Assembly: GCA_021823525.1 (NCBI GenBank)
Contig: JAKANY010000005.1
Span: 861-64,860, forward strand
Reading direction: 5' to 3'
DNA: 64,000 bases
From: Actinomycetes bacterium
GTDB taxonomy: Bacteria; Actinomycetota; Acidimicrobiia; Acidimicrobiales; RAAP-2
Shown here piece by piece: positions 6,849-58,253 of the stretch; positions within the stretch are counted from its first letter, which is position 1; each line of letters begins with the position of its first letter. The position numbers were made by a program, and so were the translations under genes. The notes beneath the pieces were generated by a model, which worked only from the letters and a program-made list of their open reading frames with translations, searched no databases and was not told where the DNA came from.

Positions 6849-7702
6849 GACGGGCCGCCACCAAACTCCAGGGGTACCCCGATCCGAGTACGTCCAGCCT
6901 CGACGCCAACCCACGGCATCGAGGCCTCGTCACCGGGGACGTGCTGGTTCCGGAAGTCAACACCGACGACGTGGCCCGCGCGGTCGGCGGTGATGTCGTC
7001 CTGGTGCGATGGACTCATGTCCGGCACCGACGCGAGGTCGACCGGGTCTCGATGAACCAGTCGGGGCAGACCCGTTCCTGCGCCCGGCATGGTGCGCGGG
7101 CCAATCCGGCGCGACGACCGGCTCGCGTCCCTCCCCGCTCTCGGTCGCGAAGATGAGCGGATTCTCAAGAGCGTCTCGATGAAGGCGACACCGACGCCAA
7201 CGCGAACGAGGCGTTCGCCCACCCTAGGAATCCCGAAGACGCTATCGCCGGAGTCATGATTCGCCACTCTCCCGACATGCGCCGTACCGCCCTGCTCGAG
7301 CCATCGGAATGCGAACCGTCGAACCCGTTCGCGGTCGCGCTGACCACGGAGTGATCGGGCCGACGCTACGGCCGGATCACTCCTCCGGCTCTGGATTGGT
7401 GCACGCCACGCACGAGCACAACAGGACCCGGCAACGACCCAGCGAGAGAGGGCGGCCTCAAGGGGTCAGCGCGATACCCGGTGAGTCGTCCTTGGGCGGT
7501 TTCCACCGCTTGGGCTCAACTCGTCAGCGCAGCAACGGATCCAACGGGACTTCTCGTCCACGCGTCTCACGGCTTCCAGCCCGGCGGCGTCGTCCACGAC
7601 GCGACGCCGCCGCCGGGGCGCACGATCGCACGGGCGGGCACGCTGGTGCTATCCATTCATCGGGGAGTCGGCGCGAGCGCCGATTGGAGGGGACCAGACA
7701 CG

Positions 7703-9388
7703 GTGAGCGACCTTTCGTACGACCGGGGCATCGAACTCGGCGACCGCACGTGGTGGGTCGGCGCCGCGATGGCCGACGGGTCGTTTCCGAGCAACGTTTA
7801 TCTCATCGAGCAGGGCGATCGCTCCGTCGTCATCGACCCCGGATCGTCACTCGGCGCCGAGGAGACGGCGGAACGGATCAACGCGGTGGTCGGTCTGCGT
7901 AACGTGCGCTGGATCGTGTCCAGCCAACCCGACGCCGACAAGGTCGCGGCCCTGCCCCACCTCCTCTCGCGCGGGCTGCACCCCGAGGTCGCAGTCGTCA
8001 CCCACTGGCGGGCCCACGGGTCGCTGCGCCGCGCGGGCTTGGCCATCCCCCTGCACAGCATCGACGACGGGCGCCACCGCATCGAGCTGGACGACCGGAC
8101 CTTGCACTTCCTGCCCACGCCGTACCTGCGCTCGGCCGGGGCCTTCGCGACCTTCGACGAGCGCTCGAGAGTCCTCTTCAGCTCGGACCTCTTCGGCAGC
8201 TTCGAGTCCGGGTCCACGCTCTTCGTGGACGCCCCTGAAAATATCGACGCGATCCAGCGCTTCCACGTCTATTCCGTGGCGAGTCGCGACGTGCTCGCAC
8301 ACGCGCTGCTCGCAGTGCGATCGGCGAACCCGCGGATGATCGCACCCCAGCACGGACGCATCATCACCGAGGACTTCACCGACTTGGCAATCAGCGCCCT
8401 CAGCGACCTCGACTGCGGGGCCCTCCTGCTCACGCCCGACGACCCCGGTCTCTCGTTCCTCTTCGCGGCGAACCGGACAATCCACGGCATCATCAACACC
8501 CTCGTGAAGGAGCACGACTTCTCGACAGTCGCCGCGCACCTCGCGGGCCTGGCCGAGAAGACGCTCGGCGCCGAGTACTTCGAGCTGTGGGCGGGCACCA
8601 ACGGGGTGCTGTTTCGCTTCGAGCGCGAGGACGACTACGCCGGGCACCGCGACGTCCCGCCCGAGGACGTGGCCAGCGTGCTCGCCGGGCAGACCGTCGC
8701 GCCGGACCACCGGCTCGTCCTGGCGATGCGGTCGCCCTCGACGGGCACGATCGACGGAGTGATGCTCTGGGGCTTTCGCGAGCGGTGGGTGCCGAGCGAC
8801 GCGACGCTCGTGGTGCTGAACCAGATCATCTCGCTGGTCGAGGTCGGCCTCGAGCGCGAGATCCTGCGGCGCACCGCCGACCTCGAACTCTCGGAGTGGC
8901 ACACGCGCGCGATCTACGACCCGCTGACTGGACTGCGCAACCGTGCCTCGCTCGCCGACACTTACCACCAGCTCGCGGCCTTCGACGACCGCAACGCCGA
9001 GCCGCAGATGGCCGCGCTGATGGTCGACGTGGACCACTTCAAGGCCGTCAACGACACCTTCGGCCACGCCGTCGGCGACCTCGTGCTGCAGCGGATCGCG
9101 CACGCGATTCTCCAGAGCGTGCGCCCGAGCGACCCGTCCTTCCGCCTCGGCGGCGAGGAGTTCCTCGTGCTGCTCTCCAACGTCGACGGCACCGGTGCCG
9201 GCCTCGCCGCAGATCGGATCCGCGAGCGGGTCGCGCGCGCCACGCCCGACCTCCCGATCGTCACGGTCAGCGTCGGCCTGGCGATGCGTCGACTGAACGA
9301 GATCCAGGAGTTGCTGCTCTCGCGAGCCGACGCCGCCCTGTACCGCGCCAAGGAGAACGGCCGTGATCGCGTCGAGGTCGCCCCCTAG
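7703..9388 (+). CDS. MBL-fold (ODP/flavodiiron-like) + GAF-like + GGDEF diguanylate cyclase
   Basis: N-terminal NVYLI..VIDPG, FSSDLFG, IAPQHG; C-terminal YDPLTGLRNR, DVDHFKAVNDTFGHAVGD, RLGGEEF with an RxxD I-site. GTG 7703 follows GGAGG. Confidence 0.88.
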   Translation: MSDLSYDRGIELGDRTWWVGAAMADGSFPSNVYLIEQGDRSVVIDPGSSLGAEETAERINAVVGLRNVRWIVSSQPDADKVAALPHLLSRGLHPEVAVVTHWRAHGSLRRAGLAIPLHSIDDGRHRIELDDRTLHFLPTPYLRSAGAFATFDERSRVLFSSDLFGSFESGSTLFVDAPENIDAIQRFHVYSVASRDVLAHALLAVRSANPRMIAPQHGRIITEDFTDLAISALSDLDCGALLLTPDDPGLSFLFAANRTIHGIINTLVKEHDFSTVAAHLAGLAEKTLGAEYFELWAGTNGVLFRFEREDDYAGHRDVPPEDVASVLAGQTVAPDHRLVLAMRSPSTGTIDGVMLWGFRERWVPSDATLVVLNQIISLVEVGLEREILRRTADLELSEWHTRAIYDPLTGLRNRASLADTYHQLAAFDDRNAEPQMAALMVDVDHFKAVNDTFGHAVGDLVLQRIAHAILQSVRPSDPSFRLGGEEFLVLLSNVDGTGAGLAADRIRERVARATPDLPIVTVSVGLAMRRLNEIQELLLSRADAALYRAKENGRDRVEVAP

Positions 9389-10683: not shown

Positions 10684-12261
10684 TCAACGCGCTGAACTCA
10701 CGAGAGCGTCGACGAGCACCGTTGCGTAGGAGGACCGCAGAGCGCTGCTGTGGGGACCGCGAACCTCCACCGCGGCGCGCTCGCGCCCGTGGTGAATCAC
10801 GAGGATCGACCCGGCGTCGCGGGCTGGTCCGCTCACGCGCACAAAGCCGGCCGGCACGGTCAAACTCGCGCAGCCGCCGCGCACGAGGACCGTCGTTGGC
10901 CAGCGCGCCGCCGCACTCGCCGCGATCCTCACCTCCCAGGTCGTGCGCGCCCCACAGTGGCCGACCTCGACCAGGAGCGCCGAGCCCGACGTCATGCGTG
11001 CCGCGACGGGTGCCGGAACCGGGCGGTCGAGCGCCCGCGCCGCACCACCGGCGGCTTCGGCCAGCACCGGGCTCGCGGCCGGCGCGACGCTCGCAGCCAG
11101 CGCGGGCACCGAGCCCACGACGAGCACCCCCACGGCGACGAGCGACGCCGCCGAGGTGACCAGAGGCGCGAGACGCGGCACCCGGGCCGGGGCCTCGCTC
11201 GGAGCCGCGCGCAGCGCCAGGGCGCCCACGACCACGAGGATTGCCTGGGGCAGCATCGAGTTCGGGTCGGTCCCGACCCCTCCCCAGAAACCCATGTCCT
11301 GGACGATCACCCAGTCAACGAGCGTCAGCGCCACGAGCACGCCGACGCCCGCGCGCACGCTCGTGCGCCGACCCGTGAGCAGCAGCACACCGCTCGTCGT
11401 CATCAGCACCACGACGACGAGGTTCACCGCCCCGCCGTGCGCGCCCACGCCGCGAGCCGACGCCGCGATCAGCGACGCGAGCCAGTGGGGCTGGCTGTTG
11501 CCGGCCATGGTCTGGAGGGTCGCGGTGAGATTCCCGGTCGTGTGCCGGCCGGCGCCCTGCCAGGACCCGCGGCCCGGCCAGGCCTGCAGCAGCGCCATGG
11601 CCACCAGGAACGATCCGTAGATCGCCAGCAGGCGCCGTCCCAGGCGCGGCGTCCACGCGGTGAGGGGCAGGGCCACGAGCAGCCCGGCGACCGCGTAGAA
11701 GACCACGCCGCCCGGCGCGCCGGTGAGCCACGACAGGCCCGGGGCGAAGATGCCGCCGAAGGCCTCGCCGAGCGCCCACACGAGCACGCTCCAGGCCAGG
11801 CTGACCAGGCCCGCCGCCCGCGACCACCAGCCGCGCGGCGCGACCAGCAACCAGATCCCGATGCCCAGCTGGATCCACACCGCGGAGGCCGGGACACTGA
11901 TCGGGTGCTGGTTCCACAGGTTCCCGCCCCAGTTGACCATCGCCTGAACCCAGCCCGGGGACGTGCTGGCCGCGGGCGCCACCACCTGGGGCACCATCGC
12001 GAGCGGCATCGAGGCCTGGGCCTGAAGGATCCCGTCGAAGACCCAGATCGCCCCGAAGGCGACGCGCACCACGCACCGCGCCACGGGCTCGGCGGCGACG
12101 GCCGCCCGCGGCGCTCCGCGCAGCCGCCGCCAGGCGACAGCGCCCACGACCACGGCCAGCGCCACCGCGGCGATGGCCACCAGCTCGACGATCAGCTCGT
12201 GGTAGAAGCCCGACACCACCACCGGGCTTCCCGCCGACAACCCTGTCGACAGGCCCGGCAT
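10684..12261 (-). CDS. Polytopic membrane protein with two DoxX-like modules and a degenerate thioredoxin/SCO-like C-terminal tail
   Basis: RVAFGAIWVFDGILQAQ and GGVGTDPNSMLP motifs, many hydrophobic helices; soluble tail after ALDRPVPAP lacks CxxxC. Confidence 0.6.
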   Translation of the reverse strand: MPGLSTGLSAGSPVVVSGFYHELIVELVAIAAVALAVVVGAVAWRRLRGAPRAAVAAEPVARCVVRVAFGAIWVFDGILQAQASMPLAMVPQVVAPAASTSPGWVQAMVNWGGNLWNQHPISVPASAVWIQLGIGIWLLVAPRGWWSRAAGLVSLAWSVLVWALGEAFGGIFAPGLSWLTGAPGGVVFYAVAGLLVALPLTAWTPRLGRRLLAIYGSFLVAMALLQAWPGRGSWQGAGRHTTGNLTATLQTMAGNSQPHWLASLIAASARGVGAHGGAVNLVVVVLMTTSGVLLLTGRRTSVRAGVGVLVALTLVDWVIVQDMGFWGGVGTDPNSMLPQAILVVVGALALRAAPSEAPARVPRLAPLVTSAASLVAVGVLVVGSVPALAASVAPAASPVLAEAAGGAARALDRPVPAPVAARMTSGSALLVEVGHCGARTTWEVRIAASAAARWPTTVLVRGGCASLTVPAGFVRVSGPARDAGSILVIHHGRERAAVEVRGPHSSALRSSYATVLVDALVSSAR

Positions 12262-12265
12262 GGCC

Positions 12266-12820
12266 TCAGCCCTCCGTCGTCCGCGGCGAGCCCTGCTGGA
12301 CGCGCACCACGAGGGCGAGCAACGTGATCCACATCGCCAGCACCAGGGCCAGGAGCACGGCCACCGCCCAGCGGCCGATCAGGCCGTCGGTGCGCGTCGC
12401 GTTGATCGGCCCCGCGAAGGGGTCGGTGCGCGCGACCGACGCGGTCAGCGTGCCCTGGGCGATCGTCGAGCCGCCGAGGGCGGCGGTCGCCACGAAGCTC
12501 GTCGGACCGGCCCAGGTGGGCTGGTAGGTGAACGCGGCGACGCCTGACGCGTCGGTCGTGGCCCGGCCAATGGTCAGCAGGGGCGAGCCGGCGAACTCCG
12601 GGACGTGGACCTCGAAGGTCACGACCGCACCGGTGACCGGCGCACCCGCCGGCGAGTCGACGACGGCCGTGAGCGCGGTGCCCACGCCCGTGACCGGGGC
12701 GCCCGCGCGCAGCTGGAGGCTCGTGGCGCCCGACGCGCCCGCGACCCCGCCCAGGGCCAGCGCCAGGACGGCGACCCCGCCGACCAGCAGTCCCCCGAGC
12801 ACTCTCGTTGGCGTCCTCAC
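12266..12820 (-). CDS. Exported Ig-like (Big-type) protein with C-terminal membrane anchor
   Basis: GTG 12820 with AAGGAGG RBS, GTGA overlap with the upstream stop; signal peptide, beta-rich core (PVTGAVVTFEV, ATTDASGVAAFTY), C-terminal TM helix. Confidence 0.7.
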   Translation of the reverse strand: MRTPTRVLGGLLVGGVAVLALALGGVAGASGATSLQLRAGAPVTGVGTALTAVVDSPAGAPVTGAVVTFEVHVPEFAGSPLLTIGRATTDASGVAAFTYQPTWAGPTSFVATAALGGSTIAQGTLTASVARTDPFAGPINATRTDGLIGRWAVAVLLALVLAMWITLLALVVRVQQGSPRTTEG

Positions 12821-14214
12821 GACCGACCTCCTTGCGTCCGCGTCTCGTGGGCCAGCTCCTCCATCTCGGTGACCGACAGGGCCGGCACGAAGCGGAAGAC
12901 GATCAGGAGCAGCAGGAAGATGGCGGCGGTCGCGGCCACCGTGATCGAGATGGAGATCCAGGTGAAGTGGTAGGTCCCCCACCCCGTCGACACCCCGCCC
13001 GACGCCTTGGTCGCCGCGCGCACCAGGGGCTCGGTGGCGGCCGGGATCACGATGACGAGGCGCTTGACCCACAAGGAGAGCACCACGAAGACCGAGGCGA
13101 TGGTCACGCCGGTCTTGGTACGCAGGGGCTTGATCGCCATGATCAGCAGCGGCACGAGGCCGCCGGCCACGAAGTAGAACCAGAAGGGCACCCAGTAGCG
13201 GCCCGCGACGACCTGGTGGACCCAGGCCGCCGGTCCCGCGGTGTTGGAGTAGCCATCGATGAGGTACTCGGTGAAGGTCAGGTAGAGGTAGGCCGCACCG
13301 AAGGCGATCATCAAGAAGCCCAGGCGCACGAAGTGCCGCGACGCGATGTAGCTCTCCAGGTGGAACAGCTTGCGCACCGCGGCCACCGATATCACGACGA
13401 GGGCGACGCCCGAGTACAGGGCGGCCACGACGAAGTACACCGGGAGGATCGTCTCCATGTAGCCCGCCCGCGAGGAGGACGCGAAGGCAAAGCTGAGCAC
13501 CGAGTGCACCGAGACGGCCATGGGGATGATCATGATCGCGAGCAGCCCGATGGACCCGTTGAGGCGCCGGCGCTCGGTCGGCGTCCCGCCGTAGCGGCCC
13601 ACGAGGGTCCGGTAGAGCGTCTGGCGGACCTTCACCCGCGTCGAGGGGGCCTCGGCGTCGAGCTGCTCCAGGGCCACCTTGGCGTCGGGCACCAGGGGCA
13701 GGTAGAAGAAGACGATGGTCGCCATCAGGTAGGTCGACACCGCGAAGAAGTCCCAGAGGATCGGTGAGGACAGGTTCCAGTAGGGCGGCCAGACCAGCTC
13801 CCAGATCTTGCCCGGGTTCCCGAGGTGGGGGATGATGAAGATCATCCCGATGGGCAAGGTCACCAGCGCGGTCGCCTCGGCGATGCGCGTCAGGGGAGCG
13901 CGCCAACTCTGGTGGGTCAGGCGCAGGATCGCCGAGACGACGGCGCCTCCGTAACTCACGCCGATGAAGGTCACCAAGTTGGACTCGTAGATGCCCCAGA
14001 AGGCGTCGTCGTTGTAGCCCGCCGAGCCGAGCCCGTGGGCCAGCTGGAAGATCCACGCGACGATACCCAGCGCCACGACGGCCCCCAGAACCAGGACGCT
14101 CGGCCACCACCACCGTGGGGTCTCGAGCACCGGTCGCAGGACCGCGTGACGCAACTCGTGGTCGACCGGGTGCGCCTCGGAGGGCACCGGCTCGACGATC
14201 ACATCAGTCATCAC
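12817..14214 (-). CDS. nrfD: NrfD/PsrC-family membrane subunit, ActC-like
   Basis: About ten TM helices; VSAILRL..W..PLTRIAEA, PHLGNP, SSPILWDFFAVSTY, SVHSVLSF and PVYFVVAALYSG resemble alternative complex III ActC motifs. Confidence 0.88.
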   Translation of the reverse strand: MMTDVIVEPVPSEAHPVDHELRHAVLRPVLETPRWWWPSVLVLGAVVALGIVAWIFQLAHGLGSAGYNDDAFWGIYESNLVTFIGVSYGGAVVSAILRLTHQSWRAPLTRIAEATALVTLPIGMIFIIPHLGNPGKIWELVWPPYWNLSSPILWDFFAVSTYLMATIVFFYLPLVPDAKVALEQLDAEAPSTRVKVRQTLYRTLVGRYGGTPTERRRLNGSIGLLAIMIIPMAVSVHSVLSFAFASSSRAGYMETILPVYFVVAALYSGVALVVISVAAVRKLFHLESYIASRHFVRLGFLMIAFGAAYLYLTFTEYLIDGYSNTAGPAAWVHQVVAGRYWVPFWFYFVAGGLVPLLIMAIKPLRTKTGVTIASVFVVLSLWVKRLVIVIPAATEPLVRAATKASGGVSTGWGTYHFTWISISITVAATAAIFLLLLIVFRFVPALSVTEMEELAHETRTQGGRS

Positions 14215-14229: not shown

Positions 14230-15075
14230 CTAGTCGCCCGAGTCGTTGTCGTTGACGAGGTCCTGGCCGTGGCCCGGGATGTAGAAGACGCGCGGGTGCG
14301 TCCCGTACTCCTCCTTGAAGACCATCCCGTTGTTCTCGGCCAGGAAGGTCGAGATCTTGATCGTCTGGCCCATCCCGTTCACCGCCGTGTCCGAGGTCAG
14401 GTCGCCGAAGTAGATGACGCCCATCGCGCAGTGCGTCGCGCACTCGGGGATCTGCCCGGTCGGCAGCATGGCCGCGCAGTCGATGCACTTGCCCACGGTC
14501 CCCTGCACCTGGGGCACCGGCCACTCGGGGCTCTGGGCGTAGGGCTGCTTCGGCGCGGGCTCGGGAGCTCCCCAATTGAAGTAGCGCGCGTCGTAGGGGC
14601 AGGCGTTCATGCAGATGCGCGTGCCGATGCACTTGGACTGGTCCACCAGCACCAGGCCCTCGGGCGTGCGGAAGTTGGCGCCCACCGGGCACACCGGCAC
14701 GCACGCCGGGTCCTCGCACTGCATGCACGGCCGCGGCATCGGGTACTCCTCGCCCGCGGCGTTGGTCATGGTGTAGACCTTCATCCACGTCTGGTCCTCG
14801 TGGAGGAAGTGCGCCGTCTGGCACGCGGTCGTGCACAGCTGACAGCCGTTGCACATGCGCAGGTCGATGATCATGCACCACTGCTTGGTCGGGCCGCTCG
14901 TCGTCGTCGTCGTTGACGCCGGCTCGGCGGCCAGAGCCACCGTCCCACCGACCGCGCCGAGCACGCCGAGCCCGATCCCGCCGATCGCCGCCGCACGCAG
15001 GACGCTGCGGCGCTGGATGGTGACGGCGGTTGCCGTCGCCCCCGCCGTCGTCGTGTCGATCATTGCCTCACTCAT
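14230..15075 (-). CDS. Tat-exported multi-Fe-S ferredoxin-type subunit (NrfC/PsrB/ActB2-like)
   Basis: Start MSEAMID (ATG 15075, TGATG overlap); QRRSVL twin-Arg signal; CNGCQLCTTAC, CMQCEDPACVPVC, CIGTRICMNAC, KCIDC-x11-CATHC. Confidence 0.92.
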   Translation of the reverse strand: MSEAMIDTTTAGATATAVTIQRRSVLRAAAIGGIGLGVLGAVGGTVALAAEPASTTTTTSGPTKQWCMIIDLRMCNGCQLCTTACQTAHFLHEDQTWMKVYTMTNAAGEEYPMPRPCMQCEDPACVPVCPVGANFRTPEGLVLVDQSKCIGTRICMNACPYDARYFNWGAPEPAPKQPYAQSPEWPVPQVQGTVGKCIDCAAMLPTGQIPECATHCAMGVIYFGDLTSDTAVNGMGQTIKISTFLAENNGMVFKEEYGTHPRVFYIPGHGQDLVNDNDSGD

Positions 15076-15815
15076 CAGTCCACCACCTTGATGTCGCCTT
15101 CCATCCAGTTCGTCGTCGACATGGCGCCACTGCCGCCGTTGGCGCCCGCACCGCACGGCGCGTAGCACTGCCACACGAAGGTTCCCGTCTTGGTCGGGAT
15201 GAACGTCGCTTCAACGGTGACGTGGCCGTTGCCCGTGGCCGCGGGGATCGGCATGTTGAAGTTGAACGCGTCGATCGTGAAGGTGTGGGCGACCGTCACG
15301 TCCGAGATCGACGACACGGTCTTGCCGCCGATCGTCTCGGTGCCGGTCGTGGACCCCATGACGTGGTCGAACATCATCTGGGCGCCCTGGAGGGGTGCCG
15401 TTCCGTTGTCGTAGCTGGTGATGATCACCGTGACCTTCTCGTCCTTCTTCACCGTCCAGGACGCGTTGGTGTACTTGGGCTGGCCGCCGAGCGCGCCCGT
15501 GGTGTTGGTGATGATCGACATGCGCTCAGTGACGGCGCCGTGGGCCACGACCGCCGGCACGGCCGTCGAGGGCTTGGTCGCGTCGCGGATGGCGGCCGCC
15601 ACTCCGCTCACGATCGCGACGGTCACGCCCAGGCCCACGAGGATCACGGCCAGCGAGCCGATCACGATCGTGCCGCCGGCGGCCGCCCGCTTGGGGCGTC
15701 GCCAGCTCAGGCGACCGAGACGGGCCAGCGGATCGCTGGCCCCGAGACGGGCGAGCGGATCCCGGGCGCTGTCGCGCCCGGGATCCGTCGTGCGGGAAGA
15801 GCGGTCGTCGCTCAC
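15075..15815 (-). CDS. Membrane-anchored cupredoxin-fold protein (copy C)
   Basis: GTG 15815 overlaps the upstream stop; single TM helix; AHTFT...WQCYAPCG...MSTTNWMEGDIKV. Confidence 0.75.
   Translation of the reverse strand: MSDDRSSRTTDPGRDSARDPLARLGASDPLARLGRLSWRRPKRAAAGGTIVIGSLAVILVGLGVTVAIVSGVAAAIRDATKPSTAVPAVVAHGAVTERMSIITNTTGALGGQPKYTNASWTVKKDEKVTVIITSYDNGTAPLQGAQMMFDHVMGSTTGTETIGGKTVSSISDVTVAHTFTIDAFNFNMPIPAATGNGHVTVEATFIPTKTGTFVWQCYAPCGAGANGGSGAMSTTNWMEGDIKVVD
15757..15786 (-). promoter_or_regulatory. 12-bp perfect stem-loop just after the stop of cupredoxin B (inside the 5' end of copy C)
   Basis: GGATCCCGGGCG (15757-15768) pairs with CGCCCGGGATCC (15775-15786); 6-nt loop. Confidence 0.55.
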
Positions 15816-16372
15816 GCCACGACCCGGATCTTGCCGGTCATCCACGTCATGGTCGACATGGCGCCGCTCATGCCGTTCGCGCCACTGCCGCAGGGGGCGT
15901 AGCAGTGCCACACGAACGTCCCGGTCTTCTCGGGCACGAAGGTCGCGCTGACCACGATGTGACCGCTCGTGGGCGCGACGGGGATCGGCATGTTGAAGTC
16001 GAGGCCCGGCACGGTGAAGGTGTGGGCGATGTTGATGTCCGACACCGTCGAGACGACCTTGCCGCCCGCCAGCTCCTTGCCGTTGGTGGTGCCCAAGACC
16101 TTGTCGTACTTCACGTAGCTGCCGACCAGGGGCGCGGTGCCGTCGTCGAAGCTGATGATGCGCACGGTGACCGTCTCACCCTTCTTCACGGTCCAACTGG
16201 AGTTGAGGATCTTGGGCCAGCCGGAGCGGCCGTCCATGTGACCCGTCACGAGACGCATGGTCTCGGTCACGTGCGTCGAGGCGGCGCTGGCCGACGTGGT
16301 CGCCAGGGCGCCGGTGGCCAGCGGGGCGAGGGCGAGAACCAGGGAGGCCGCCTTGGCCATCGGGTGCTTCAT
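15812..16372 (-). CDS. Secreted cupredoxin-fold protein (copy B)
   Basis: ATG 16372 with AGGAGG RBS; Sec signal MKHPMAKAASLVLALAPLA; AHTFT...WHCYAPCG...MSTMTWMTGKIRV. Confidence 0.8.
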   Translation of the reverse strand: MKHPMAKAASLVLALAPLATGALATTSASAASTHVTETMRLVTGHMDGRSGWPKILNSSWTVKKGETVTVRIISFDDGTAPLVGSYVKYDKVLGTTNGKELAGGKVVSTVSDINIAHTFTVPGLDFNMPIPVAPTSGHIVVSATFVPEKTGTFVWHCYAPCGSGANGMSGAMSTMTWMTGKIRVVA

Positions 16373-16424
16373 CGTGGAATTCCTCCTATGTGTGCTAAAT
16401 GTCATGGCTGGGGGGATTGGCGTC

Positions 16425-16461
16425 TCGCCTCGCGCCGCCCCTCGGGGGCGGCGCGAGGCGA
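16425..16461 (-). promoter_or_regulatory. 17-bp perfect stem-loop between cupredoxin A and B
   Basis: TCGCCTCGCGCCGCCCC (16425-16441) pairs with GGGGCGGCGCGAGGCGA (16445-16461); 3-nt loop; no U-tract on the minus strand. Confidence 0.7.
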
Positions 16462-16471
16462 AGGCGAACTG

Positions 16472-17032
16472 CTAGGCGAGGACCTTGATCTGGCCCTCCA
16501 TCCACGTCATGGTCGCCATGGAGCCCTTCATGCCGTCCGAGCCGCTGCCGCACGGGGCGTAGCAGTGCCAGATGAAGGTGCCGGACTTCTTGGCGACGAA
16601 GGTCGCGACGATGACGTTGGTCTTGCCCGTGGGCGCAGCGGGAATCGGCATGTTGAACCCGAGGCCCGGGATGGTGAAGGTGTGGGCGATGTTGATGTCC
16701 GACACCAGCGTGGTGGCCTTGCCGCTCACCAGCTCCTTGCCGGTGGTGGTGCCCATGACCTTGTCGTACTTCATGTAGTTGCCCGTCAGCGGGGCCGTGC
16801 CGTCATCGTGGTTGATGATGCGCACGGTGACCGTCTCGCCCTTCTTCACGGTCCAGCTGGAGTTCAGGATCCTGGGCTGTCCGCCGAGCGGGCCGGTCGT
16901 GTTGGTGACCAGCGTCATGGTCTCGGTGACGTGCGTCGAGGCGGCGCCCGCCATCCCGGCGACCAGGGCGCCGCTCGCCAGCGGGGCCAGTGCCAGGACC
17001 AGGGATGCCGCCTTGGCCATCGGGTGCTTCAT
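16472..17032 (-). CDS. Secreted cupredoxin-fold protein (copy A)
   Basis: AGGAGG RBS; same signal peptide start as copy B; AHTFT...WHCYAPCG...MATMTWMEGQIKV. Confidence 0.8.
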   Translation of the reverse strand: MKHPMAKAASLVLALAPLASGALVAGMAGAASTHVTETMTLVTNTTGPLGGQPRILNSSWTVKKGETVTVRIINHDDGTAPLTGNYMKYDKVMGTTTGKELVSGKATTLVSDINIAHTFTIPGLGFNMPIPAAPTGKTNVIVATFVAKKSGTFIWHCYAPCGSGSDGMKGSMATMTWMEGQIKVLA

Positions 17033-17072
17033 TCTGGGATTCCTCCTGTTTGGTGGTGGTACTGCCTCGCCA

Positions 17073-17102
17073 CCCGCCGCCGCCCCTTTTCCTGGCGGCG
17101 GG
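17073..17102 (-). promoter_or_regulatory. 9-bp stem-loop between cupredoxin D and A
   Basis: CCCGCCGCC (17073-17081) pairs with GGCGGCGGG (17094-17102); 12-nt loop. Confidence 0.5.
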
Positions 17103-17111
17103 AGACGACCT

Positions 17112-17669
17112 CTACGCCGTGACCTTCAGGAAGCCGCGCATGTACCCGTTGGTGGCCATCGACCACTTGTCGCAGGGCAGCGCGCAGAACCACTGGAACG
17201 TGCCGGTGGACTTGGGCGTGAAGGTGAAGTGGGTGACCGAGGGCGACGAGGCGCTCCCCGCAGGGGTGCTGGCGTTGATGTTGAAGTTGGGCAGCGTCCA
17301 GGTGTGGGCGTGCGCGTCGTAGTTGTAGATCACGACGTCGTAGGTGGTGCCCTTGGTCATGGTGAGCAGTCCGGGCACGAACGCGTCCTGGACGACGCCG
17401 TTGACCTTGACGCCACCGACCGGCGGCGGGTTGATCGAGAGCTTCACCGTCACGGCCTTCGGCGCACTGGCGACGGCGGGCGCGCTCGCGGTGACCGTCG
17501 TGGCCGCGCTCGGTCCCGTGACGCGGTGCCACACCCAGCCCACGCCCGCGGTCAGGGCGAAGAGCACTGCGGCGACGTAGACGGTCGCCAGCAGCAGGGT
17601 GACCAGGCCGCGCACGCGGCGGGGCTGCTCGCTCGTGGAAGGACGCAGGACGCTGGACTCGCTACTCAT
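17112..17669 (-). CDS. Membrane-anchored cupredoxin-fold protein (copy D, first gene of the operon)
   Basis: ATG 17669 with GAGGAG RBS; N-terminal TM; AHTWT...WFCALPCDKWSMATNGYMRGFLKV. Confidence 0.78.
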   Translation of the reverse strand: MSSESSVLRPSTSEQPRRVRGLVTLLLATVYVAAVLFALTAGVGWVWHRVTGPSAATTVTASAPAVASAPKAVTVKLSINPPPVGGVKVNGVVQDAFVPGLLTMTKGTTYDVVIYNYDAHAHTWTLPNFNINASTPAGSASSPSVTHFTFTPKSTGTFQWFCALPCDKWSMATNGYMRGFLKVTA

Positions 17670-17819: not shown

Positions 17820-18494
17820 GTGTCAGAGGGGCCAGCGGCGTCGGCGTCGCCGATCACGGTGGTCGTGGTCGACGACCACACGGTCGTGCGCCGGGGCACC
17901 CGCGAGATGCTCGAGCGCGAGCCCGACATCACCGTCGTCGACGACGTGGGGACCATTGAGGAGGCCCTGGCCGCCGTGCGACGCCACCAGCCCACGCTGC
18001 TGGTCGTCGACGTCGAGCTGCCTGACGGCTCCGGGGTCGACATCGTTCGGCACCTCGTGGAGGAGAACTCGCCGGTGCGCTGCCTCATGCTCTCGGCTCA
18101 CGACGACTACGTCTACTTCTCCGAGTCCCTGGCGGCCGGAGCCGCCGGGTACCTGCTCAAGACCGTCTCGACCGAGAAGTTCATCGCCGCGGTGCGCACC
18201 GTCGCCCTGGGGGGGACCGTGATCGACGGCGTCCTCTCCCACCGTCTGGCCGGGCGCCGCCAGCAGCCCGAGGAGCGCCTGGCGGCCTCGCTGACCGCGC
18301 GCGAGTTCGACGTGATCCGGGGCCTCGTGCGAGGGCGCTCCAACAAGGAGATCGCCAAGGAGCTCGGGGTGGGCCTGCGCACCGTCGAGAGCTACGTCTC
18401 GACGATCCTGTCCAAGCTCGGGGTGCGCTCGCGCGCCGAGGCCATCGTCTACGTCCTCGAGCACCACCTCGTGACGCCCGGGTCGGCCCGATGA
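17820..18494 (+). CDS. NarL/LuxR-family response regulator
   Basis: REC domain (VVDDH, VVDVELPD, GYLLK) plus LuxR HTH (LTAREFDV..GRSNKEIAKELGVGLRTVESY); TATCCT -10 lies 7 nt before the GTG (leaderless). Confidence 0.95.
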   Translation: MSEGPAASASPITVVVVDDHTVVRRGTREMLEREPDITVVDDVGTIEEALAAVRRHQPTLLVVDVELPDGSGVDIVRHLVEENSPVRCLMLSAHDDYVYFSESLAAGAAGYLLKTVSTEKFIAAVRTVALGGTVIDGVLSHRLAGRRQQPEERLAASLTAREFDVIRGLVRGRSNKEIAKELGVGLRTVESYVSTILSKLGVRSRAEAIVYVLEHHLVTPGSAR

Positions 18495-19891
18495 GCCCCG
18501 AGCCGCCCAGGGTCGCCCTGCGCGAGGTGCTCGCGCGCGCCCTCCACCCCCCGGTGCGCGAGCGGGCTTTCTGGTTCGTCCAACTCATGGTCGCCGTGTG
18601 GGCCGTCGTCCACCTGCTGATCGACGCGCACGGGTTCCTCAGTCCCTCGTGGTTCCCCTACGGGACACCCATCGACCTGCTCCTGATCCCGGTGGGCTAC
18701 GCGGCCCTCCACTACGGGCTCTCGGGCTCGGCCGCCACCACCCTGTGGTCGATCCTGCTGTGGATGCCCGATCTGCTCATGCCCGACGATCGGGGCCACT
18801 ACCACCACGACCTGGTCCAGCTGGCCGTCGTGGCCGTGGTCGCGCTCTTCGTGGGGCTCGAGATCGAGCGCTCCCATCTGCAGCGCAACCGCGCCGAGGC
18901 CGCCGAAGCCGAGCGACGCGCGGCCGAGGCCCACTACCACCAGCTCTTCGCCGCCAACATCGCGCCGATCCTGCTCGTCAACAGCGCGGGGCACGTCGTC
19001 GAGCACAACGAGGCCACGCGAACGCTCTGGGAGGACCCCCTGGGCCAGACCCTCGAGGAGTTGCTCGGCGTGGACCCGCGCGACTGGCCCGACTCGCTGA
19101 CGGTGGCCCTCGAGACCCCGAGCGGCGAGCGGACCTACCGCGTCTCGACGACGGTCCTCGCCGGCACCGCGCCTCCGCTCTCCCAGGTCATCCTCGAGGA
19201 CATCACGGCCGAGCGCCGCAGCGAGGCCGAGGCGCGCGCCTGGGCCATCGAGGTGCTGCGAGCCCAGGAGCAGGAGCGCCGCCGGATCGCCCGCGAGATC
19301 CACGACGACCCGCTCCAGGAACTGCTCCAGCTGGCGCGCGAGTTCGAGGTGCTCGAGCGCGGCACCTCCGAGACGGGCGTCACGACCGCGCGCGAGCACC
19401 TGCTCGACACCGTCGCGCACCTGCGCGAGGTGACTCGCGGGCTGCACCCGGCCGGGCTCGACCAGCACGGCCTGGTCGCCGCCCTGCGGGGCCTGCTCGT
19501 CGACGTCGAGATCGAGACGGGTGTGCTCACGAGCTTCGCGCTCGCGGGCGAGCCCCTGGACGAGCGACCCGAGGTCGAGGTGGCGCTCTTTCGCATCGTC
19601 CAGGAGGCGGTGCGCAACGCCGTGCGCCACGCCCGGGCCGATCACCTGCGCGTCGAGCTCGACATCGACGACGCGGCGGCGACCGTCACCATCACCGACG
19701 ACGGCGTGGGCTTCGACCCGGACACCAACCCCGCGAGCGGGCACCTCGGGCTCCAGAGCATGACCGAGCGTGCCGTGCTGCTCGGGGGCACCTGCGAGGT
19801 GGTGAGCGCCCCGGGGGCCGGGACGCGCGTGCGCGCGACCCTGCCGCTCGTGGCGACATCGGGTCTCCCCCTCGTCCGCCATCACGTCTGA
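18491..19891 (+). CDS. Sensor histidine kinase (membrane sensor, PAS-like, HisKA_3, HATPase)
   Basis: ERRRIAREIHDD H-box, QEAVRNAVRH N-box, DDGVGF and GLQSMTERA; ATGA overlap with the regulator. Confidence 0.93.
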   Translation: MSPEPPRVALREVLARALHPPVRERAFWFVQLMVAVWAVVHLLIDAHGFLSPSWFPYGTPIDLLLIPVGYAALHYGLSGSAATTLWSILLWMPDLLMPDDRGHYHHDLVQLAVVAVVALFVGLEIERSHLQRNRAEAAEAERRAAEAHYHQLFAANIAPILLVNSAGHVVEHNEATRTLWEDPLGQTLEELLGVDPRDWPDSLTVALETPSGERTYRVSTTVLAGTAPPLSQVILEDITAERRSEAEARAWAIEVLRAQEQERRRIAREIHDDPLQELLQLAREFEVLERGTSETGVTTAREHLLDTVAHLREVTRGLHPAGLDQHGLVAALRGLLVDVEIETGVLTSFALAGEPLDERPEVEVALFRIVQEAVRNAVRHARADHLRVELDIDDAAATVTITDDGVGFDPDTNPASGHLGLQSMTERAVLLGGTCEVVSAPGAGTRVRATLPLVATSGLPLVRHHV

Positions 19892-19906: not shown

Positions 19907-22009
19907 GTGGCGATGCGCACCGTCGGTCCGTCACGCCCACGCGCACCCCGCGCGCGGGTGCGGCGTGCGCTGACGCACCTGGTCGCGGCGCCGCGCGCCG
20001 CCGCGTCGCGCTGGCTCGCCACCACCACCTACGGGCGCAAGTGGCTGGTGCTGGGCTCGCTGATCGGGCTCGTGGCGGGACTCGGCGCCGTCGTGTTCTA
20101 CGAGGCGCTGGTGGGCGTCACGCACCTCCTGCTGGGCACGCTCGGCCAATACCGCCCACCCACGCCCGCGGGCGAGGGCGGGCTCGCGGGCAGCGGATCG
20201 TTCGCGCGTCCCTGGGCCATTCCCCTGATCGTCGCGGGCGGCGCGCTGCTCGCGAGCCTGCTCGTCGTCTACGTCGCCCCCGAGGCCGAGGGCCACGGGA
20301 CCGACGCGGCCATCGCGGCGGTGCATCACAACCCGCGCGGCATCCGCCTGCGCGCCGTCGCGGTCAAGATCGTCGCCTCGGCCCTGACCATCGGAGCGGG
20401 AGGCTCGGGCGGGCGCGAGGGGCCCACCGGCCAGATCAGCGCCGGCTTCGGCTCGGCCCTGGCGCGCCTGTTCGACCTCGGGCCCCGTGACGCGCGCATC
20501 GCCGTCTCGGCGGGGATCGGGTCGGGCATCGGGGCGATCTTCGGCGCCCCTCTCGGCGGAGCGGTGCTGGCCTCCGAGGTCCTCTACCGCGACGACTTCG
20601 AGGTCGACTCCCTGCTCCCCGCCTTCATCGCCTCGATCGTCGCGTACGCGCTGTTCGGCTCGATCCTGGGCTTCACGCCGCTGTTCGGCTACGTGGGCAC
20701 CTATCACCTTCTGAGCGCGGGACCGCTCGCCTGGTTCGCCGTCATCGGGGTCGTCAGCGGCCTGGTCGGCCTGGCCTACGCCACCGTCTTCTACCGCTTG
20801 GCCGACGCCTTCGCCCGCTCGCGCGTGCCGCGCTGGCTGCGCCCCGCCCTGGGCGGCCTGGTCGTGGGCCTGGTGGGCCTGGCTGTCCCCCAGGTCCTGG
20901 GAACCGGCTACGGCTGGGTCCAGCACGCCTTCGACCAGCGCCTGCTCGCGATGCCCCTGTGGCTGGTGCTGGTGATCCCGCTCGCGCGGATCGTGGCGAC
21001 GGGTCTGTCGATCGGCTCGGGGGGATCGGGCGGGATCTTCGGGCCCGGCATGGTCATCGGGGCGTTCGTGGGCGCGGCGGTGTGGCGCGTCTTCGCGCCC
21101 CTCACCCCGGGCCTCGGCCACGACCCAGCGCCCTTCGCCATCGTGGGCATGATGGCGTGCTTCGGCTCGATCGCCCGGGCGCCACTCGCGGTGATGCTCA
21201 TGGTTGCCGAGATGACCGGGACGCTGTCCCTGCTCATCCCGGCGATGGTGGCCGTGGGCATCGCCACGCTCATCGTCTCGCGCACCGACGCCACCATCTA
21301 CCGCAGCCAGCTGCGCAACCGAGCCGAGGCGCCCGCGCACCGGATCGTGACGGGCCTGCCGCTGCTCGCCACGGTGCGCGCCGAGGCCGCCGTCAGCCCG
21401 CCGCGCCTGGTCCTGGACGGCGCCACCCCCGTCGCCGCGGCAGCGGCGCTCGTGGACGAGCTGGGCGTCGCGGGCGCGCCGGTCGTCGACGACGACGGGC
21501 GCCTGCGCGGTGTGGTGCGCGTCACGGACCTCGCGGGCGCGAGCGCGACCCCCGAGCGACCGGTTGCCGACGTCGCCGACGGGGACGCCCTGCCCCTGCG
21601 CGGCTCGGACCACCTGGACCGGGTCGTCGAGGCGCTTCTCGCCACGCCCGACGCCTGGGCGCCGGTCGTGGACGACGCGCGCCACGTGGTGGGGGTGATC
21701 GGCCTCGCCGACGTGGTGCGCGCCTACCGCTCCAGCCTGCGCGAGCGCCTGGCCGCGCTCGCGCCCACGACGGACGTCGACGGCGTGCGCGCCCTGACCA
21801 TCGCACCGGGCTCGGCGCTCGACGGCGCACCGGTGCGCTCGACGGTCGTCCACGGCGTGCTGCTCACGACGATTCAGCGCGGCGATGCGATCATCGAGCC
21901 TCGCGGCACGACGGTGCTGGCCGCGGGCGATCGGATCACCGCGCTGGGCTCGGCGGGGGCCCTCGAGCGCGTCGCGCGTGCGGCGAGCACGCCGGGCCCG
22001 GCGAGCTAG
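19907..22009 (+). CDS. ClC-family chloride channel/antiporter with CBS and TrkA-C domains
   Basis: GHGTD, GSGGREGP, GGSGGIFGP motifs; CBS pair and C-terminal IQRGD..IEPRG RCK_C segment. The true start may be ATG 19913. Confidence 0.92.
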   Translation: MAMRTVGPSRPRAPRARVRRALTHLVAAPRAAASRWLATTTYGRKWLVLGSLIGLVAGLGAVVFYEALVGVTHLLLGTLGQYRPPTPAGEGGLAGSGSFARPWAIPLIVAGGALLASLLVVYVAPEAEGHGTDAAIAAVHHNPRGIRLRAVAVKIVASALTIGAGGSGGREGPTGQISAGFGSALARLFDLGPRDARIAVSAGIGSGIGAIFGAPLGGAVLASEVLYRDDFEVDSLLPAFIASIVAYALFGSILGFTPLFGYVGTYHLLSAGPLAWFAVIGVVSGLVGLAYATVFYRLADAFARSRVPRWLRPALGGLVVGLVGLAVPQVLGTGYGWVQHAFDQRLLAMPLWLVLVIPLARIVATGLSIGSGGSGGIFGPGMVIGAFVGAAVWRVFAPLTPGLGHDPAPFAIVGMMACFGSIARAPLAVMLMVAEMTGTLSLLIPAMVAVGIATLIVSRTDATIYRSQLRNRAEAPAHRIVTGLPLLATVRAEAAVSPPRLVLDGATPVAAAAALVDELGVAGAPVVDDDGRLRGVVRVTDLAGASATPERPVADVADGDALPLRGSDHLDRVVEALLATPDAWAPVVDDARHVVGVIGLADVVRAYRSSLRERLAALAPTTDVDGVRALTIAPGSALDGAPVRSTVVHGVLLTTIQRGDAIIEPRGTTVLAAGDRITALGSAGALERVARAASTPGPAS

Positions 22010-55834: not shown

Positions 55835-57783
55835 GCGGCCTCCCCGTGATGCCGGCGCACCAGGGCGACCGCGCTACCCAGGCCGATCAGCAGCCCGCCG
55901 ATCCACAGCCAGCTGAGGAGGGGCTCGACGGTCACCCCGAGCGCGACCGCCCCGGGGGGCAGGGTGCCCGCGACCTGGGCGCCCGAGGTCGCACCCGAGC
56001 CCCCGATGGCGTCGAAGGTCACGTAGACGTCGCGCAGCAAGTTCGAGTCGATCGCCGGGGTGCCCACGGGCTGGGAGGCGCGCCCGACGTACGTGGTGAC
56101 CGCCGGATGCAGCGTCGCGCCATCGACGCTCACCACGAGCTGGGTCGCGCTGGCCAGCGCCGTGCGCACCTGGCGCAGGCCGTGGTAGCCGACGAGCTGG
56201 CCGTCGACGAGCGTGCGCTGGCCCGGGCGCAAGGCGACCTCGGTGCGCTGGGCGTAGCTGGTCGAGGTCACGATCCCCACCGCGAGCACCACGACACCGA
56301 GATGCGTCACCATGCCCCCCGTCGAGGGTGCCCGCAGCATGCGCCACGCCGCGCCGCGGCGCCGCGCCGCGCTCCACGCCCCGCGCAGGCCGCGCAGGGC
56401 CGCCCCGGCGGCCACGACCGCGAGCAGGTAGGCGAGCAGGTCGCGCCAGCGCCGTACGCCAAGGCCGACCAGCACCGCGTCGAGGGCCAGGCCCGTCCAG
56501 GCTGCCAGGCGCACCCGTTCCCAGAGCACGCGCGGCGCGTGCTGGCGCCACGGCACGAGCGGCGCGATCGCCATCAGGGCGAGCGTCGCGATCGCGGCGG
56601 GCGCGACGACCGCCGCGAAGTACGGGGTGCCCACGGTGACCGCGACGCCGTTGACCGCCTGGTAGAGGAGGGGGAAGACCGTCCCGAGCAGCACCACGAG
56701 GGCCACGCCCACGAAGAGCACGTTGTTCAGGAGGAAGAGGCCCTCGCGCGAGAGCGGGTGGTCGACCCCGACCGGGCTGCGCAGGCGGTCCCCGCGCGCC
56801 ACCAGCAGCGCCGCGCCGCCCCCCGCGGCCAGCGCGAACAGCCCGATGAGGAGGGGACCGAGGGTGGACGAGCTGAAGGCGTGCACGCTCTGGAGGACCC
56901 CCGAGCGGGTGAAGAAGGTGGCCAGCACCGTCAGGGCGAAGGTCGCGATCGCCAGGGCCAGGTTCCACACCCGCAGCAGGCCACGCCGGTCCTGGACGAT
57001 CGTCGAGTGCAGGTAGGCCGTCCCGGTCAGCCACGGCAGCAGGGCGGCGTTCTCGACCGGGTCCCAGCCCCAGAACCCGCCCCAGCCCAGCACCTGGTAG
57101 CTCCACCACGCCCCGAGCACGATGCCCACGCTGAGGCTCCCCCAGGCCAGCACCGCGAAGCGGCGCTGGCGGCGCAGCCAGTCCTCGCCGACGCGCCCGG
57201 TCGCGAGCTGGCCGATGGCGAAGGCGAAGGGCACCGCGAAGCCCACGAAGCCCAGGTAGAGCAGGGGCGGGTGGATGGCGACGAGCGGGTTGTCCTGGAG
57301 CAGGGCGTTGGGCCCGGCCCCCTGGCGCAGGGCGACGGGGCTCGTGAGGAACGGATCGGCCGGCAGCACGAGCAGGTAGGTGAAGAAGGCACTCACCAGG
57401 CCCAGGACGCCCGTCGCGACGCGTACCACGTCGTCACGGGCCCGCGACGCGTTGGCCAGCACCACGGCCACCACCAGCGCGTCGAGCAGCAGCACCCACA
57501 GCAGCAGCGAACCCTCGAGAGCCGACCACAGGCCCGTCACCGAGTAGAGCAGCGGCGTGACCGTGGCGTTGTTGGCCGCCACGTAGGCCAGGGAGAAGTC
57601 GTGGGTGATCAGGGCAGTCTCCAGGGCCCCGACCGCGAGCGCGACGCCCCCGAGGGCCAAGAGCGCGAGCCCCCGGGCGTGGCCGCGCCGGTCGCGCCGC
57701 CAGGCGACGGCCTGGTCGAGGGCGAGGGCCAGCGAGGCCGCGAGGGCGAGGCCGGTCCCGAGGCGGCCGAGCAGCGCGATCAT
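55831..57783 (-). CDS. ccmF: Cytochrome c heme lyase CcmF
   Basis: WSALEGSLLLW, IHPPLLYLG, WGGFWGWDPVEN, RSGVLQSVHAF. Confidence 0.96.
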   Translation of the reverse strand: MIALLGRLGTGLALAASLALALDQAVAWRRDRRGHARGLALLALGGVALAVGALETALITHDFSLAYVAANNATVTPLLYSVTGLWSALEGSLLLWVLLLDALVVAVVLANASRARDDVVRVATGVLGLVSAFFTYLLVLPADPFLTSPVALRQGAGPNALLQDNPLVAIHPPLLYLGFVGFAVPFAFAIGQLATGRVGEDWLRRQRRFAVLAWGSLSVGIVLGAWWSYQVLGWGGFWGWDPVENAALLPWLTGTAYLHSTIVQDRRGLLRVWNLALAIATFALTVLATFFTRSGVLQSVHAFSSSTLGPLLIGLFALAAGGGAALLVARGDRLRSPVGVDHPLSREGLFLLNNVLFVGVALVVLLGTVFPLLYQAVNGVAVTVGTPYFAAVVAPAAIATLALMAIAPLVPWRQHAPRVLWERVRLAAWTGLALDAVLVGLGVRRWRDLLAYLLAVVAAGAALRGLRGAWSAARRRGAAWRMLRAPSTGGMVTHLGVVVLAVGIVTSTSYAQRTEVALRPGQRTLVDGQLVGYHGLRQVRTALASATQLVVSVDGATLHPAVTTYVGRASQPVGTPAIDSNLLRDVYVTFDAIGGSGATSGAQVAGTLPPGAVALGVTVEPLLSWLWIGGLLIGLGSAVALVRRHHGEAA

Positions 57784-58253
57784 CGCACCGAGCCGTTGGG
57801 CGCGCGCACCCGCGACGGGTGCGCCGCGATGTACTGCGCGGTGTGCTTGACCAGGATCTGGGTCCCGGTGAAGACCCGCGCGGTGGCGCTGGCGAAGTGG
57901 CCCACCACGACGACGGGGATGTTGGGCCCGAACAGCTCGGGCGGCGCGCCCGACTCGTGGACCGGGATGGACCCGCGCGAGCCGGTCACGACGAAGTTCG
58001 CGCCCAGCGCCGTGCGCTCGATGGAGTGGGGCGCGACGAGCCCCTCGAGGCGCACCTCGTGGCTGCCGAGACTCGCCCGGCTGGCCAGCACCTGGTCGAC
58101 GGTCTCGAAGTAGTTGAGGTTGCTCAGCAGCCCCTGGCTGAGCAGCAGCACGATCAGGCCCGCCAGCACCACCAGGACGACCAGCGTGCGCCGGCGCGAG
58201 CGGTCGGGCGCCGGCGGCGGCGCGACCGGCGCGAGCGGGTCAGCGACGCTCAC
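57780..58253 (-). CDS. ccmE: Heme chaperone CcmE
   Basis: TM anchor, RLEGLV..S, PPELF, ILVKHTAQY (HxxxY). Confidence 0.9.
   Translation of the reverse strand: MSVADPLAPVAPPPAPDRSRRRTLVVLVVLAGLIVLLLSQGLLSNLNYFETVDQVLASRASLGSHEVRLEGLVAPHSIERTALGANFVVTGSRGSIPVHESGAPPELFGPNIPVVVVGHFASATARVFTGTQILVKHTAQYIAAHPSRVRAPNGSVR

Follow-up and report, generated by a model that had tools for sequence, protein, structure and literature searches.

What kind of metal site is carried by four consecutive cupredoxins whose shared residues fit neither a type 1 blue copper loop nor a complete CuA loop, and which task would such proteins have beside the genes of a quinone-linked iron-sulfur (FeS) module? The question is raised by a 64,000-nucleotide stretch of DNA from an Actinomycetes bacterium of the Acidimicrobiales lineage RAAP-2 (NCBI GenBank assembly GCA_021823525.1, contig JAKANY010000005.1, positions 861 to 64,860 of the forward strand), which was analyzed as a whole and is called the window hereafter. 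Four tandem open reading frames (ORFs) for cupredoxins, named D, C, B and A in the order of transcription, span 15075-17669 on its minus strand, with their starts corrected. Taken together, the evidence points to a protein family derived from CuA domains, in which a Cys-bridged dicopper centre would be combined with electron carriage from a quinol module resembling alternative complex III (ACIII) to an aa3-type oxidase; for this combined reading we estimate a probability of about one half. The window has a G+C content of ~70%, and the source genome (1.83 Mb, 95% complete) was assembled from a mine drainage metagenome and has Acidimicrobiales metagenome-assembled genomes (MAGs) as its closest relatives.

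According to a preceding sequence-only reading, all four proteins display H-x39-C-x3-C-x(10 or 4)-M-x5-M, that is HT[FW]T, exactly 39 residues and W-x-C-x-x-P-C, followed, after a spacer between the second Cys and the first Met of 10 residues in A, B and C and of 4 in D, by M-[AS]-T-x-x-[WY]-M-x-G-x-[IL]-[KR]-V. Alignment and residue counts bear this out in every copy. In copy C, which is used for numbering below, the putative ligands are H117, C157, C161, M172 and M178, with codons at about 16682-16684, 16562-16564, 16550-16552, 16517-16519 and 16499-16501, respectively. Each copy contains exactly two Cys, namely those of the C-x3-C pair, and pairwise identity among the copies ranges from 31 to 73%. 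As the four genes are of common descent, however, their agreement proves little by itself, and distant relatives provide the meaningful test.

Such relatives were collected by a word-seeded search, which yielded 145 homologues, and by an exhaustive search with a hidden Markov model (HMM) among 1.84 billion representatives, which returned 1374 clusters (50% identity) at E ≤ 1e-3 and 433 at E ≤ 1e-10. Conservation was evaluated on 147 representatives among the matches listed, pairwise ≤50% identical, a set that excludes ~940 weaker matches (E 1e-10 to 1e-3); the last 160 residues of every sequence were aligned with no prior filter for the motif. H117 and C157 were found in 100% of these sequences, C161, M178 and G180 in 99.3% and M172 in 98%, and all other positions of the domain are conserved to ≤97%. 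The conserved Met pair put forward from the four copies thus holds across homologues. C-x3-C...M-x5-M-x-G is present in 259 of 268 compared sequences, the exceptions being mostly M-x6/7-M variants or damaged sequences, so that the motif is real, widespread and not a quirk of four paralogues. Peculiar to these paralogues is only the exact x39 spacing of His and Cys, a distance that varies family-wide. Two complete family domains, each with its own C-x3-C...M-x5-M, are fused in P0129, P0157 and P0181 (~400-420 aa) and likewise in P0186, P0219, P0220, P0245 and P0263 (~300 aa); these fusions are compatible with a multi-centre relay.

No Pfam or NCBIfam model captured the family in library scans of the four proteins, which gave only matches below the cut-off (COX2, Cupredoxin_1, CoxB, NosZ, L-NosZ; in copy D one to Pfam Cupredoxin_1), and members bear the database names "hypothetical protein", "cupredoxin domain-containing protein" or "plastocyanin". 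The lead to L-NosZ offered by the sub-cut-off match was dropped, the L-NosZ literature found being silent on its CuA motif. Full-text searches of the literature on NrfD with cupredoxin, on ACIII with Acidimicrobiia and on novel CuA or cupredoxin sites retrieved no description of the family or the operon, and neither the literature found on iron oxidation in acidophiles nor PMC8239418 gave an account of them.

The absence of a His from the metal loop, noted in the four copies, extends to the family with one qualification. Of 267 domains, 8 possess a His anywhere from the second Cys to the last Met, and homologues of the long-loop type, to which A, B and C belong, therefore do not commonly carry one. 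Among homologues of the short-loop type of copy D, however, the reading W-x-M-x-H-x-G-[YF]-M was found in 13 of 23, in which a His follows the first Met at a distance of two residues, corresponding to seven residues after the second Cys (C2+7). Copy D itself has Thr at this position and its nearest relatives have Thr or Asn, and the position may be that of a second-sphere or optional ligand. At C2+4, the position of the CuA His, the family possesses P, S, T or A, and at C2+7, the position of the CuA Met, the representative long-loop domains show Trp in 58 of 117 cases and Met in 29. The semi-conserved M168 at C2+7 was considered as the CuA Met and rejected, since Trp stands there in half of the representatives.

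The fold itself is that of a cupredoxin, as had been assumed from sequence and is now supported by an AlphaFold model of copy C and its Foldseek matches. The model, built on a 56-sequence alignment, reached a predicted local distance difference test (pLDDT) score of 87.5 overall and of >95 from residue 31 to the end. Foldseek retrieved cupredoxin domains only, with a probability of 1.00 for domains of multicopper oxidases, the CuA domain of NosZ, nitrosocyanin and rusticyanin; CotA-type enzymes were among the multicopper oxidases, identity to the NosZ CuA domain was 20-21%, and AcoP was matched as well. In the secondary structure assignment of this model by DSSP, C157 ends the strand 151-156 and M178 precedes the strand 179-185, sequence positions that fit the cupredoxin pattern of metal ligands on the loop joining the last two strands and one His from an earlier strand. 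The model of copy D (pLDDT 68.8, core 86-93) gives fold evidence only; its matches comprise the Cupredoxin_1 structure 4hcf (TM 0.78 on target), CuA domains of caa3/ba3 oxidases, NosZ and the Cu(I) chaperone CupA.

Three profile alignments place H117 and the Cys pair on CuA ligands and thereby uphold the CuA-like C-x3-C noticed earlier. A profile of the four sequences found the actinobacterial CtaC chain 8hcr_E in the PDB (hmmsearch, E 0.003), with HTFT aligned on HAFW and C-Y-A-P-C-G on C-A-E-M-C-G; hhalign against the COX2 of the source genome gave the same register; and an hhalign comparison of 262 family domains with six COX2 CuA domains superposed the His and the two Cys at a probability of 95.7% and E 9e-9. 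There, D76 is matched to the Asp in the D-V-x-H motif of COX2. Between this Asp and the His the long forms carry an insertion of ~38 residues that is lacking in the short forms, and on these grounds the short-loop type looks nearer to the ancestral architecture. From the fold and the alignments on CuA ligands we infer that the CuA domain of COX2/NosZ is the ancestor of the family; that it is not filed as CuA is explained by the absence of the loop His, a defining feature of that site. A type 1 blue copper loop, C-x(2-4)-H-x(2-5)-M, does not fit either, for there is no conserved His after the Cys and the second Cys stands at C+4.

H117, C157, C161, M172 and M178 would be the copper-binding residues. 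The site would be a Cys-bridged dicopper centre of the CuA type with His117 and Met172 as terminal ligands, in which Met172 would stand in for the lost second His and Met178 would be the axial Met. A dicopper centre is favoured because the conservation of the two Cys equals that in CuA, with whose Cys pair they align, and M178 is favoured as the axial Met because of its strand position and its M-x-G-x-h-x-V context. In Thermus ba3 and NosZ the Met likewise occurs in an x-G-x-h-x-V context at the start of the last strand. Regarded as a proposal of a new Cu site, the sequence-only reading is plausible but unproven.

The same loop could be understood as a mononuclear site in electron-transfer cupredoxins whose role in the operon would be unchanged, either type-1-like with His117, Cys157, Met172 in place of the C-terminal His and Met178 as axial ligand, Cys161 being a second thiolate or second-sphere residue, or Sco-like with His and a bis-thiolate. 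M-x5-M exceeds the H-x4-M of plastocyanin and rusticyanin by a single residue, and the DSSP assignment in the model of copy C is reminiscent of type 1 loops, with M172 in a short helical turn and M178 immediately ahead of the last strand. The Foldseek matches comprise AcoP, nitrosocyanin and rusticyanin, the last of these also as its His143Met mutant (2cal), and a single His would leave one Cu of a dicopper site without a strong terminal ligand. However, C161 is almost as conserved as C157, and C-x3-C-G matches the CuA motif residue for residue; moreover, Cu(II) with two thiolates tends to auto-reduce, and the Cu2S2 diamond is the known stable solution to this. A weak further point is that no blue-copper trough was seen in cells of genera to which carriers of the family belong (PMC5143472). 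We therefore regard a mononuclear site as rather unlikely. Far less probable still is a domain without any metal, in which the Cys pair would be a disulfide of structural importance, with His and Met conserved for the sake of structure or protein contact. Extracytoplasmic Cys pairs often form disulfides, and subunit II of quinol oxidases (CyoA) keeps the CuA fold without copper; but CyoA-type proteins have lost the ligand residues, whereas here the five ligand-type residues are the top-conserved ones in proteins otherwise 30-45% identical.

As to the benefit of such a site, the exchange of His for Met raises the potential of cupredoxins, and exposed His ligands are protonated at low pH. To replace an exposed, protonatable His by Met would be a sensible adaptation in a protein facing pH 1-3, an argument drawn from chemistry. 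The mine-drainage origin of the genome and the occurrence of the family in Ferrimicrobium acidiphilum and Sulfobacillus benefaciens fit this idea circumstantially.

The second part of the question, that of function, is approached through the operon (Table 1). Copy D starts with an ATG preceded by a GAGGAGA Shine-Dalgarno sequence; the GTG start of copy A overlaps the stop of B (GTGA), and the stop of A overlaps the ATG of the FeS gene (TGATG). Homologues of copy A with 245-246 aa exist among the matches of the word-seeded search. The hydrophobic starts form a single anchor in A and D and a signal-peptide-like segment in B and C, so that all four domains should face the outside of the membrane.

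Table 1: Genes of the cupredoxin operon and of the divergent two-component system in the window.
Feature	Position	Strand	Remarks
Cupredoxin D	17112..17669	-	185 aa; N-terminal membrane anchor; short-loop type H-x39-C-A-L-P-C-x4-M-x5-M
Cupredoxin C	16472..17032	-	186 aa; signal peptide; long-loop type
Cupredoxin B	15812..16372	-	186 aa; signal peptide; long-loop type; 73% identity with C
Cupredoxin A	15075..15815	-	246 aa; cytoplasmic tail and membrane anchor; long-loop type
FeS protein with twin-arginine (TAT) signal	14230..15075	-	281 aa; NrfC/PsrB/ActB-C-terminal type; Pfam Fer4_11
NrfD-family membrane subunit	12817..14214	-	ten hydrophobic segments; Pfam NrfD 1.2e-28
Ig-like small protein	12266..12850	-	N- and C-terminal anchors; sub-cut-off Big_1 match; start approximate
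Polytopic membrane protein	10684..12261	-	525 aa; eight segments
NarL/LuxR-type response regulator	17820-18494	+	divergent two-component system (17820..19891)
HisKA_3 kinase	18491-19891	+	divergent two-component system (17820..19891)

The FeS protein carries the twin-arginine signal IQRRSVL and three four-Cys motifs together with one three-Cys motif. Its NCBIfam matches, of the DsrO/TtrB/QrcC-like kind, are all below the cut-off, and in the PDB it resembles PsrB (2vpw) and ActB (6f0k), in the latter case only residues ~796-953 of the 1039-aa protein. The third cluster motif, C-I-G-T-R-I-C-x3-C-P, possesses three Cys only, which suggests that one of the clusters would be of the [3Fe-4S] type, as reported for ActB. 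For the NrfD protein the full-length significant PDB matches are the ActC subunits of four ACIII structures, led by 6f0k_C (3e-44) and followed by 6lod_C, 6btm_C and 8k9e_C, to 2e-35. The heme-c motif C-x-x-C-H occurs in none of the eight operon proteins.

Synteny was assessed by tblastn across 78 related loci. In ~55 of them both the FeS and the NrfD gene directly follow the cupredoxin gene or genes, and the order cupredoxin-FeS-NrfD recurs in Dormibacteria. The number of cupredoxin copies per operon varies from one to four, a short-loop copy often preceding one or more long-loop copies. After the NrfD gene the gene of the Ig-like protein keeps its place in most related loci; this protein gave no significant match to a family or structure. 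The 525-aa membrane protein has no Pfam, NCBIfam or PDB match, and in many related loci the FeS and NrfD genes are separated by a gene homologous to its N-terminal ~320 aa. The two-component system accompanies the operon in many loci as well, including most of those from Acidimicrobiia. In the window it is adjoined by the gene of a CLC-type chloride channel or antiporter with CBS and TrkA-C domains (19907-22009, +); CLC proteins are often tied to acid resistance. On the other side of the operon a fusion of an ODP-type metallo-beta-lactamase with a GGDEF diguanylate cyclase is encoded (7481-9388, +; Pfam ODP 4e-37, GGDEF 1e-37).

A fifth member of the family, of 234 aa and with the motif C-F-V-P-C-x12-M-A-T-Q-N-Y-M, was found on contig 37 of the source genome as the first gene of an oxidase operon (locus L091, 3671-9752, minus strand), where it is followed by COX2, A-type COX1, a 216-aa gene and CtaG. 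The COX2 of this operon exhibits the canonical CuA motif H-S-F-W ... C-S-E-L-C-G-I-W-H-G-A-M. The order cupredoxin-COX2-COX1 is shared by four other Actinomycetota genomes of three different families (L098-L101), and in the MAG WH2.bin132 (L042, 1464-11637) such a cluster lies back to back with a response regulator and a cupredoxin-FeS-NrfD operon.

In this context the most probable task of the operon is electron transport linking membrane quinol to an oxidase that reduces oxygen. A minimal relative of ACIII without heme would have the cupredoxins as its redox partners in the periplasm: its ActC-like subunit would oxidise quinol, and the electrons would move through the four FeS clusters of the subunit resembling NrfC to cupredoxin A at its anchor, perhaps onward via B, C and D, and would then reach the CuA of the aa3-type oxidase, possibly via the fifth paralogue. 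Electron transfer is favoured because the descent from CuA, the five invariant residues, the coupling to FeS and ActC-like genes, the lack of hemes c and the oxidase-linked paralogue all agree with it. ACIII is known to reduce the cupredoxin auracyanin, and the reduction of a cupredoxin by an ACIII-like module would therefore be ordinary chemistry. A more far-reaching version, which we advance tentatively and consider less probable, holds that the His-Cys2-Met2 dicopper centre, with a thioether instead of the exposed imidazole, is acid-proof and possibly of high potential, and that one to four cupredoxins replace all six c-hemes of ACIII; Gram-positive acidophiles would then possess a chain from quinol to oxygen (or one linked to Fe(II)) entirely without heme c.

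The oxidase-linked subfamily might also be taken to indicate that the proteins are no electron carriers but Cu(I) chaperones for the CuA of the neighbouring oxidase, or thiol-disulfide proteins whose Cys-x3-Cys is reduced through the FeS/NrfD module, so that traits of CupA, PCuAC and Sco would meet in them. Cu(I) trafficking classically relies on His, Cys and Met as ligands, CupA (4f2e), with Cys/Met ligands and a cupredoxin fold, is among the fold matches of copy D, Sco uses C-x3-C plus His, and the subfamily in question always adjoins COX2, where assembly factors such as CtaG are encoded too. From a chaperone, however, neither the strong cross-phylum linkage nor the translational coupling to a quinone-linked FeS module would be expected, and family scans of the window proteins revealed no CopA, CopZ or CsoR-type genes nearby. 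The motifs of CupA (C...C-x-M-x-M) and PCuAC (H(M)-x10-M-x21-H-x-M) are absent from the four sequences, the fold is that of a cupredoxin and not the thioredoxin fold of Sco, and up to four tandem copies per operon suit a relay or an abundant carrier better. We hold a role in copper or thiol traffic to be quite improbable.

The distribution of the family bears on its physiological setting. Carriers include the iron oxidisers Ferrimicrobium acidiphilum (locus L034) and Sulfobacillus benefaciens and many mine-site MAGs of Acidimicrobiia, and in addition Dormibacteria, Solirubrobacterales and soil MAGs that are not known as acidophiles. In a survey of 301 sampled genomes of the phylum, in which the best 10 candidates were scored per genome and absence is hence not certain, at least six genomes were found to carry the family; within the same limits no match at E ≤ 1e-8 was obtained in a 99% complete genome of the same genus (G173). 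From both results the module appears to be accessory and patchy. The copies of Bacillota (L061, L066, L072; Sulfobacillus and others) are directly followed by a gene for ~338 aa with a radical-SAM-like C-x3-C-x2-C N-terminus (VTRACQLHCKHC).

This distribution recalls acidophilic iron respiration, in which electrons from Fe(II), received directly or via a surface oxidase, would be split into a downhill branch to the aa3 oxidase (the operon of the fifth cupredoxin and the oxidase) and an uphill branch, driven by the proton motive force, through the FeS/ActC-like module to the quinone pool. The scheme would have its counterpart in Acidithiobacillus ferrooxidans with its rus and petI operons, and a Met-rich site without a loop His would confer high potential and acid tolerance, for the chemical reasons given above. 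It is supported by the origin of the window from mine drainage, by iron oxidisers and mine-site Acidimicrobiia among the carriers, and by the order cupredoxin-coxB-coxA, which mirrors acoP-coxB-coxA of the rus operon, with AcoP among the fold matches. But FeS clusters of the NrfC type usually have low potentials, so that the uphill step would be very steep; the carriers from Dormibacteria, Solirubrobacterales and soil are at odds with it; the low number of carriers, at least six of the 301 genomes, means that the family is not tied to one known physiology; and the locus was found in no RNA-seq run searched. Iron respiration as the role of this operon is accordingly doubtful in our view.

Several observations weigh against the combination of a dicopper centre with electron carriage from quinol to oxidase. 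The family members of Bacillota stand alone, without NrfCD. The metal loop of copy D was modelled at pLDDT <50, and the methods disagree on the axial ligand, as hhalign equates M172 with the CuA Met and strand register and M-x-G-x-h-x-V favour M178. We know of no natural CuA precedent for a Cu that has two thiolates and one thioether as ligands but no imidazole. The source genome also has genes for cytochrome b and for cytochrome c maturation, according to which the cupredoxin pathway would be an addition and not the sole route to oxygen. Finally, whole-cell spectra of iron-respiring Ferrimicrobium, Acidimicrobium and Sulfobacillus showed a-type cytochromes only and no blue-copper signal (PMC5143472), although they speak neither for nor against a copper protein that is weakly coloured or scarce.

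With regard to the cytochromes, the window itself contains, at ~56900-59040 on the minus strand (G000:C17:57762-59899), two regions that match the cytochrome c assembly family (ResC/CcsA type, PF01578). The organism thus makes c-type cytochromes although the cupredoxin operon encodes none, and the idea of an organism without cytochromes was rejected in view of these genes and that of cytochrome b.

CuA is one of the best-studied metal sites in biology, and to our knowledge its ligand set of two His, two Cys, one Met and one carbonyl is treated as fixed in nature, variants having only been engineered. A natural family with a Cys2 core, one His and a Met for the other His would be a new point in the space of copper sites, whether it proves purple, mononuclear or else, and would put to the test ideas on the limits that copper proteins meet at low pH because of exposed His ligands. 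With CuA of COX2 and NosZ the family shares the cupredoxin fold, the first ligand His in a strand of the H-[ST]-F type, the C-x3-C-G loop that superposes in profile alignments and the conserved Asp N-terminal to the His. It differs in that it has no His at C2+4 and no conserved Met at C2+7, but an invariant Met pair at C2+11/C2+17 (long loop) or C2+5/C2+11 (short loop), and in the ~38-residue Asp-His insertion of its long forms; the proteins are free-standing or singly anchored and not fused to two oxidase transmembrane helices as in COX2.

AcoP and rusticyanin, encoded in the rus operon of Acidithiobacillus ferrooxidans, are acidophile cupredoxins beside coxB-coxA and both appear among the fold matches; the fifth paralogue holds an equal position relative to COX2-COX1. 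Their sites, however, are mononuclear His2-Cys-Met sites with a single Cys, and beyond the fold no sequence relationship to the family was detectable. CupA of Streptococcus pneumoniae and PCuAC likewise have a cupredoxin-like fold, in which Cu(I) is bound through Cys and Met in CupA and through His and Met in PCuAC, but their ligand motifs are different, and CupA belongs to a cop operon with CopA, in contrast to the quinone-linked FeS module or oxidase that accompanies the family.

The closest parallel in terms of operon content is ACIII (ActABCDEF). In common are an ActC-like, ten-helix, quinol-interacting subunit and a periplasmic FeS module of four clusters with one three-Cys motif, as in the C-terminal half of ActB, and, as with auracyanin in ACIII, a cupredoxin is the likely electron acceptor of the module. 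In contrast to ACIII, the operon contains neither the pentaheme ActA nor the monoheme ActE, as judged by the missing C-x-x-C-H, its FeS protein is devoid of the molybdopterin-like N-terminal half of ActB, and no ActF was detected in it; the cupredoxin is operon-encoded and translationally coupled, and CuA-like instead of type 1. The operon thus suggests a stripped-down, heme-free relative of ACIII with a built-in cupredoxin acceptor and a dedicated cupredoxin partner for the aa3 oxidase, a point of consequence for the respiratory chains of Gram-positive acidophiles, among them Ferrimicrobium and Sulfobacillus, whose spectra display a-type cytochromes only.

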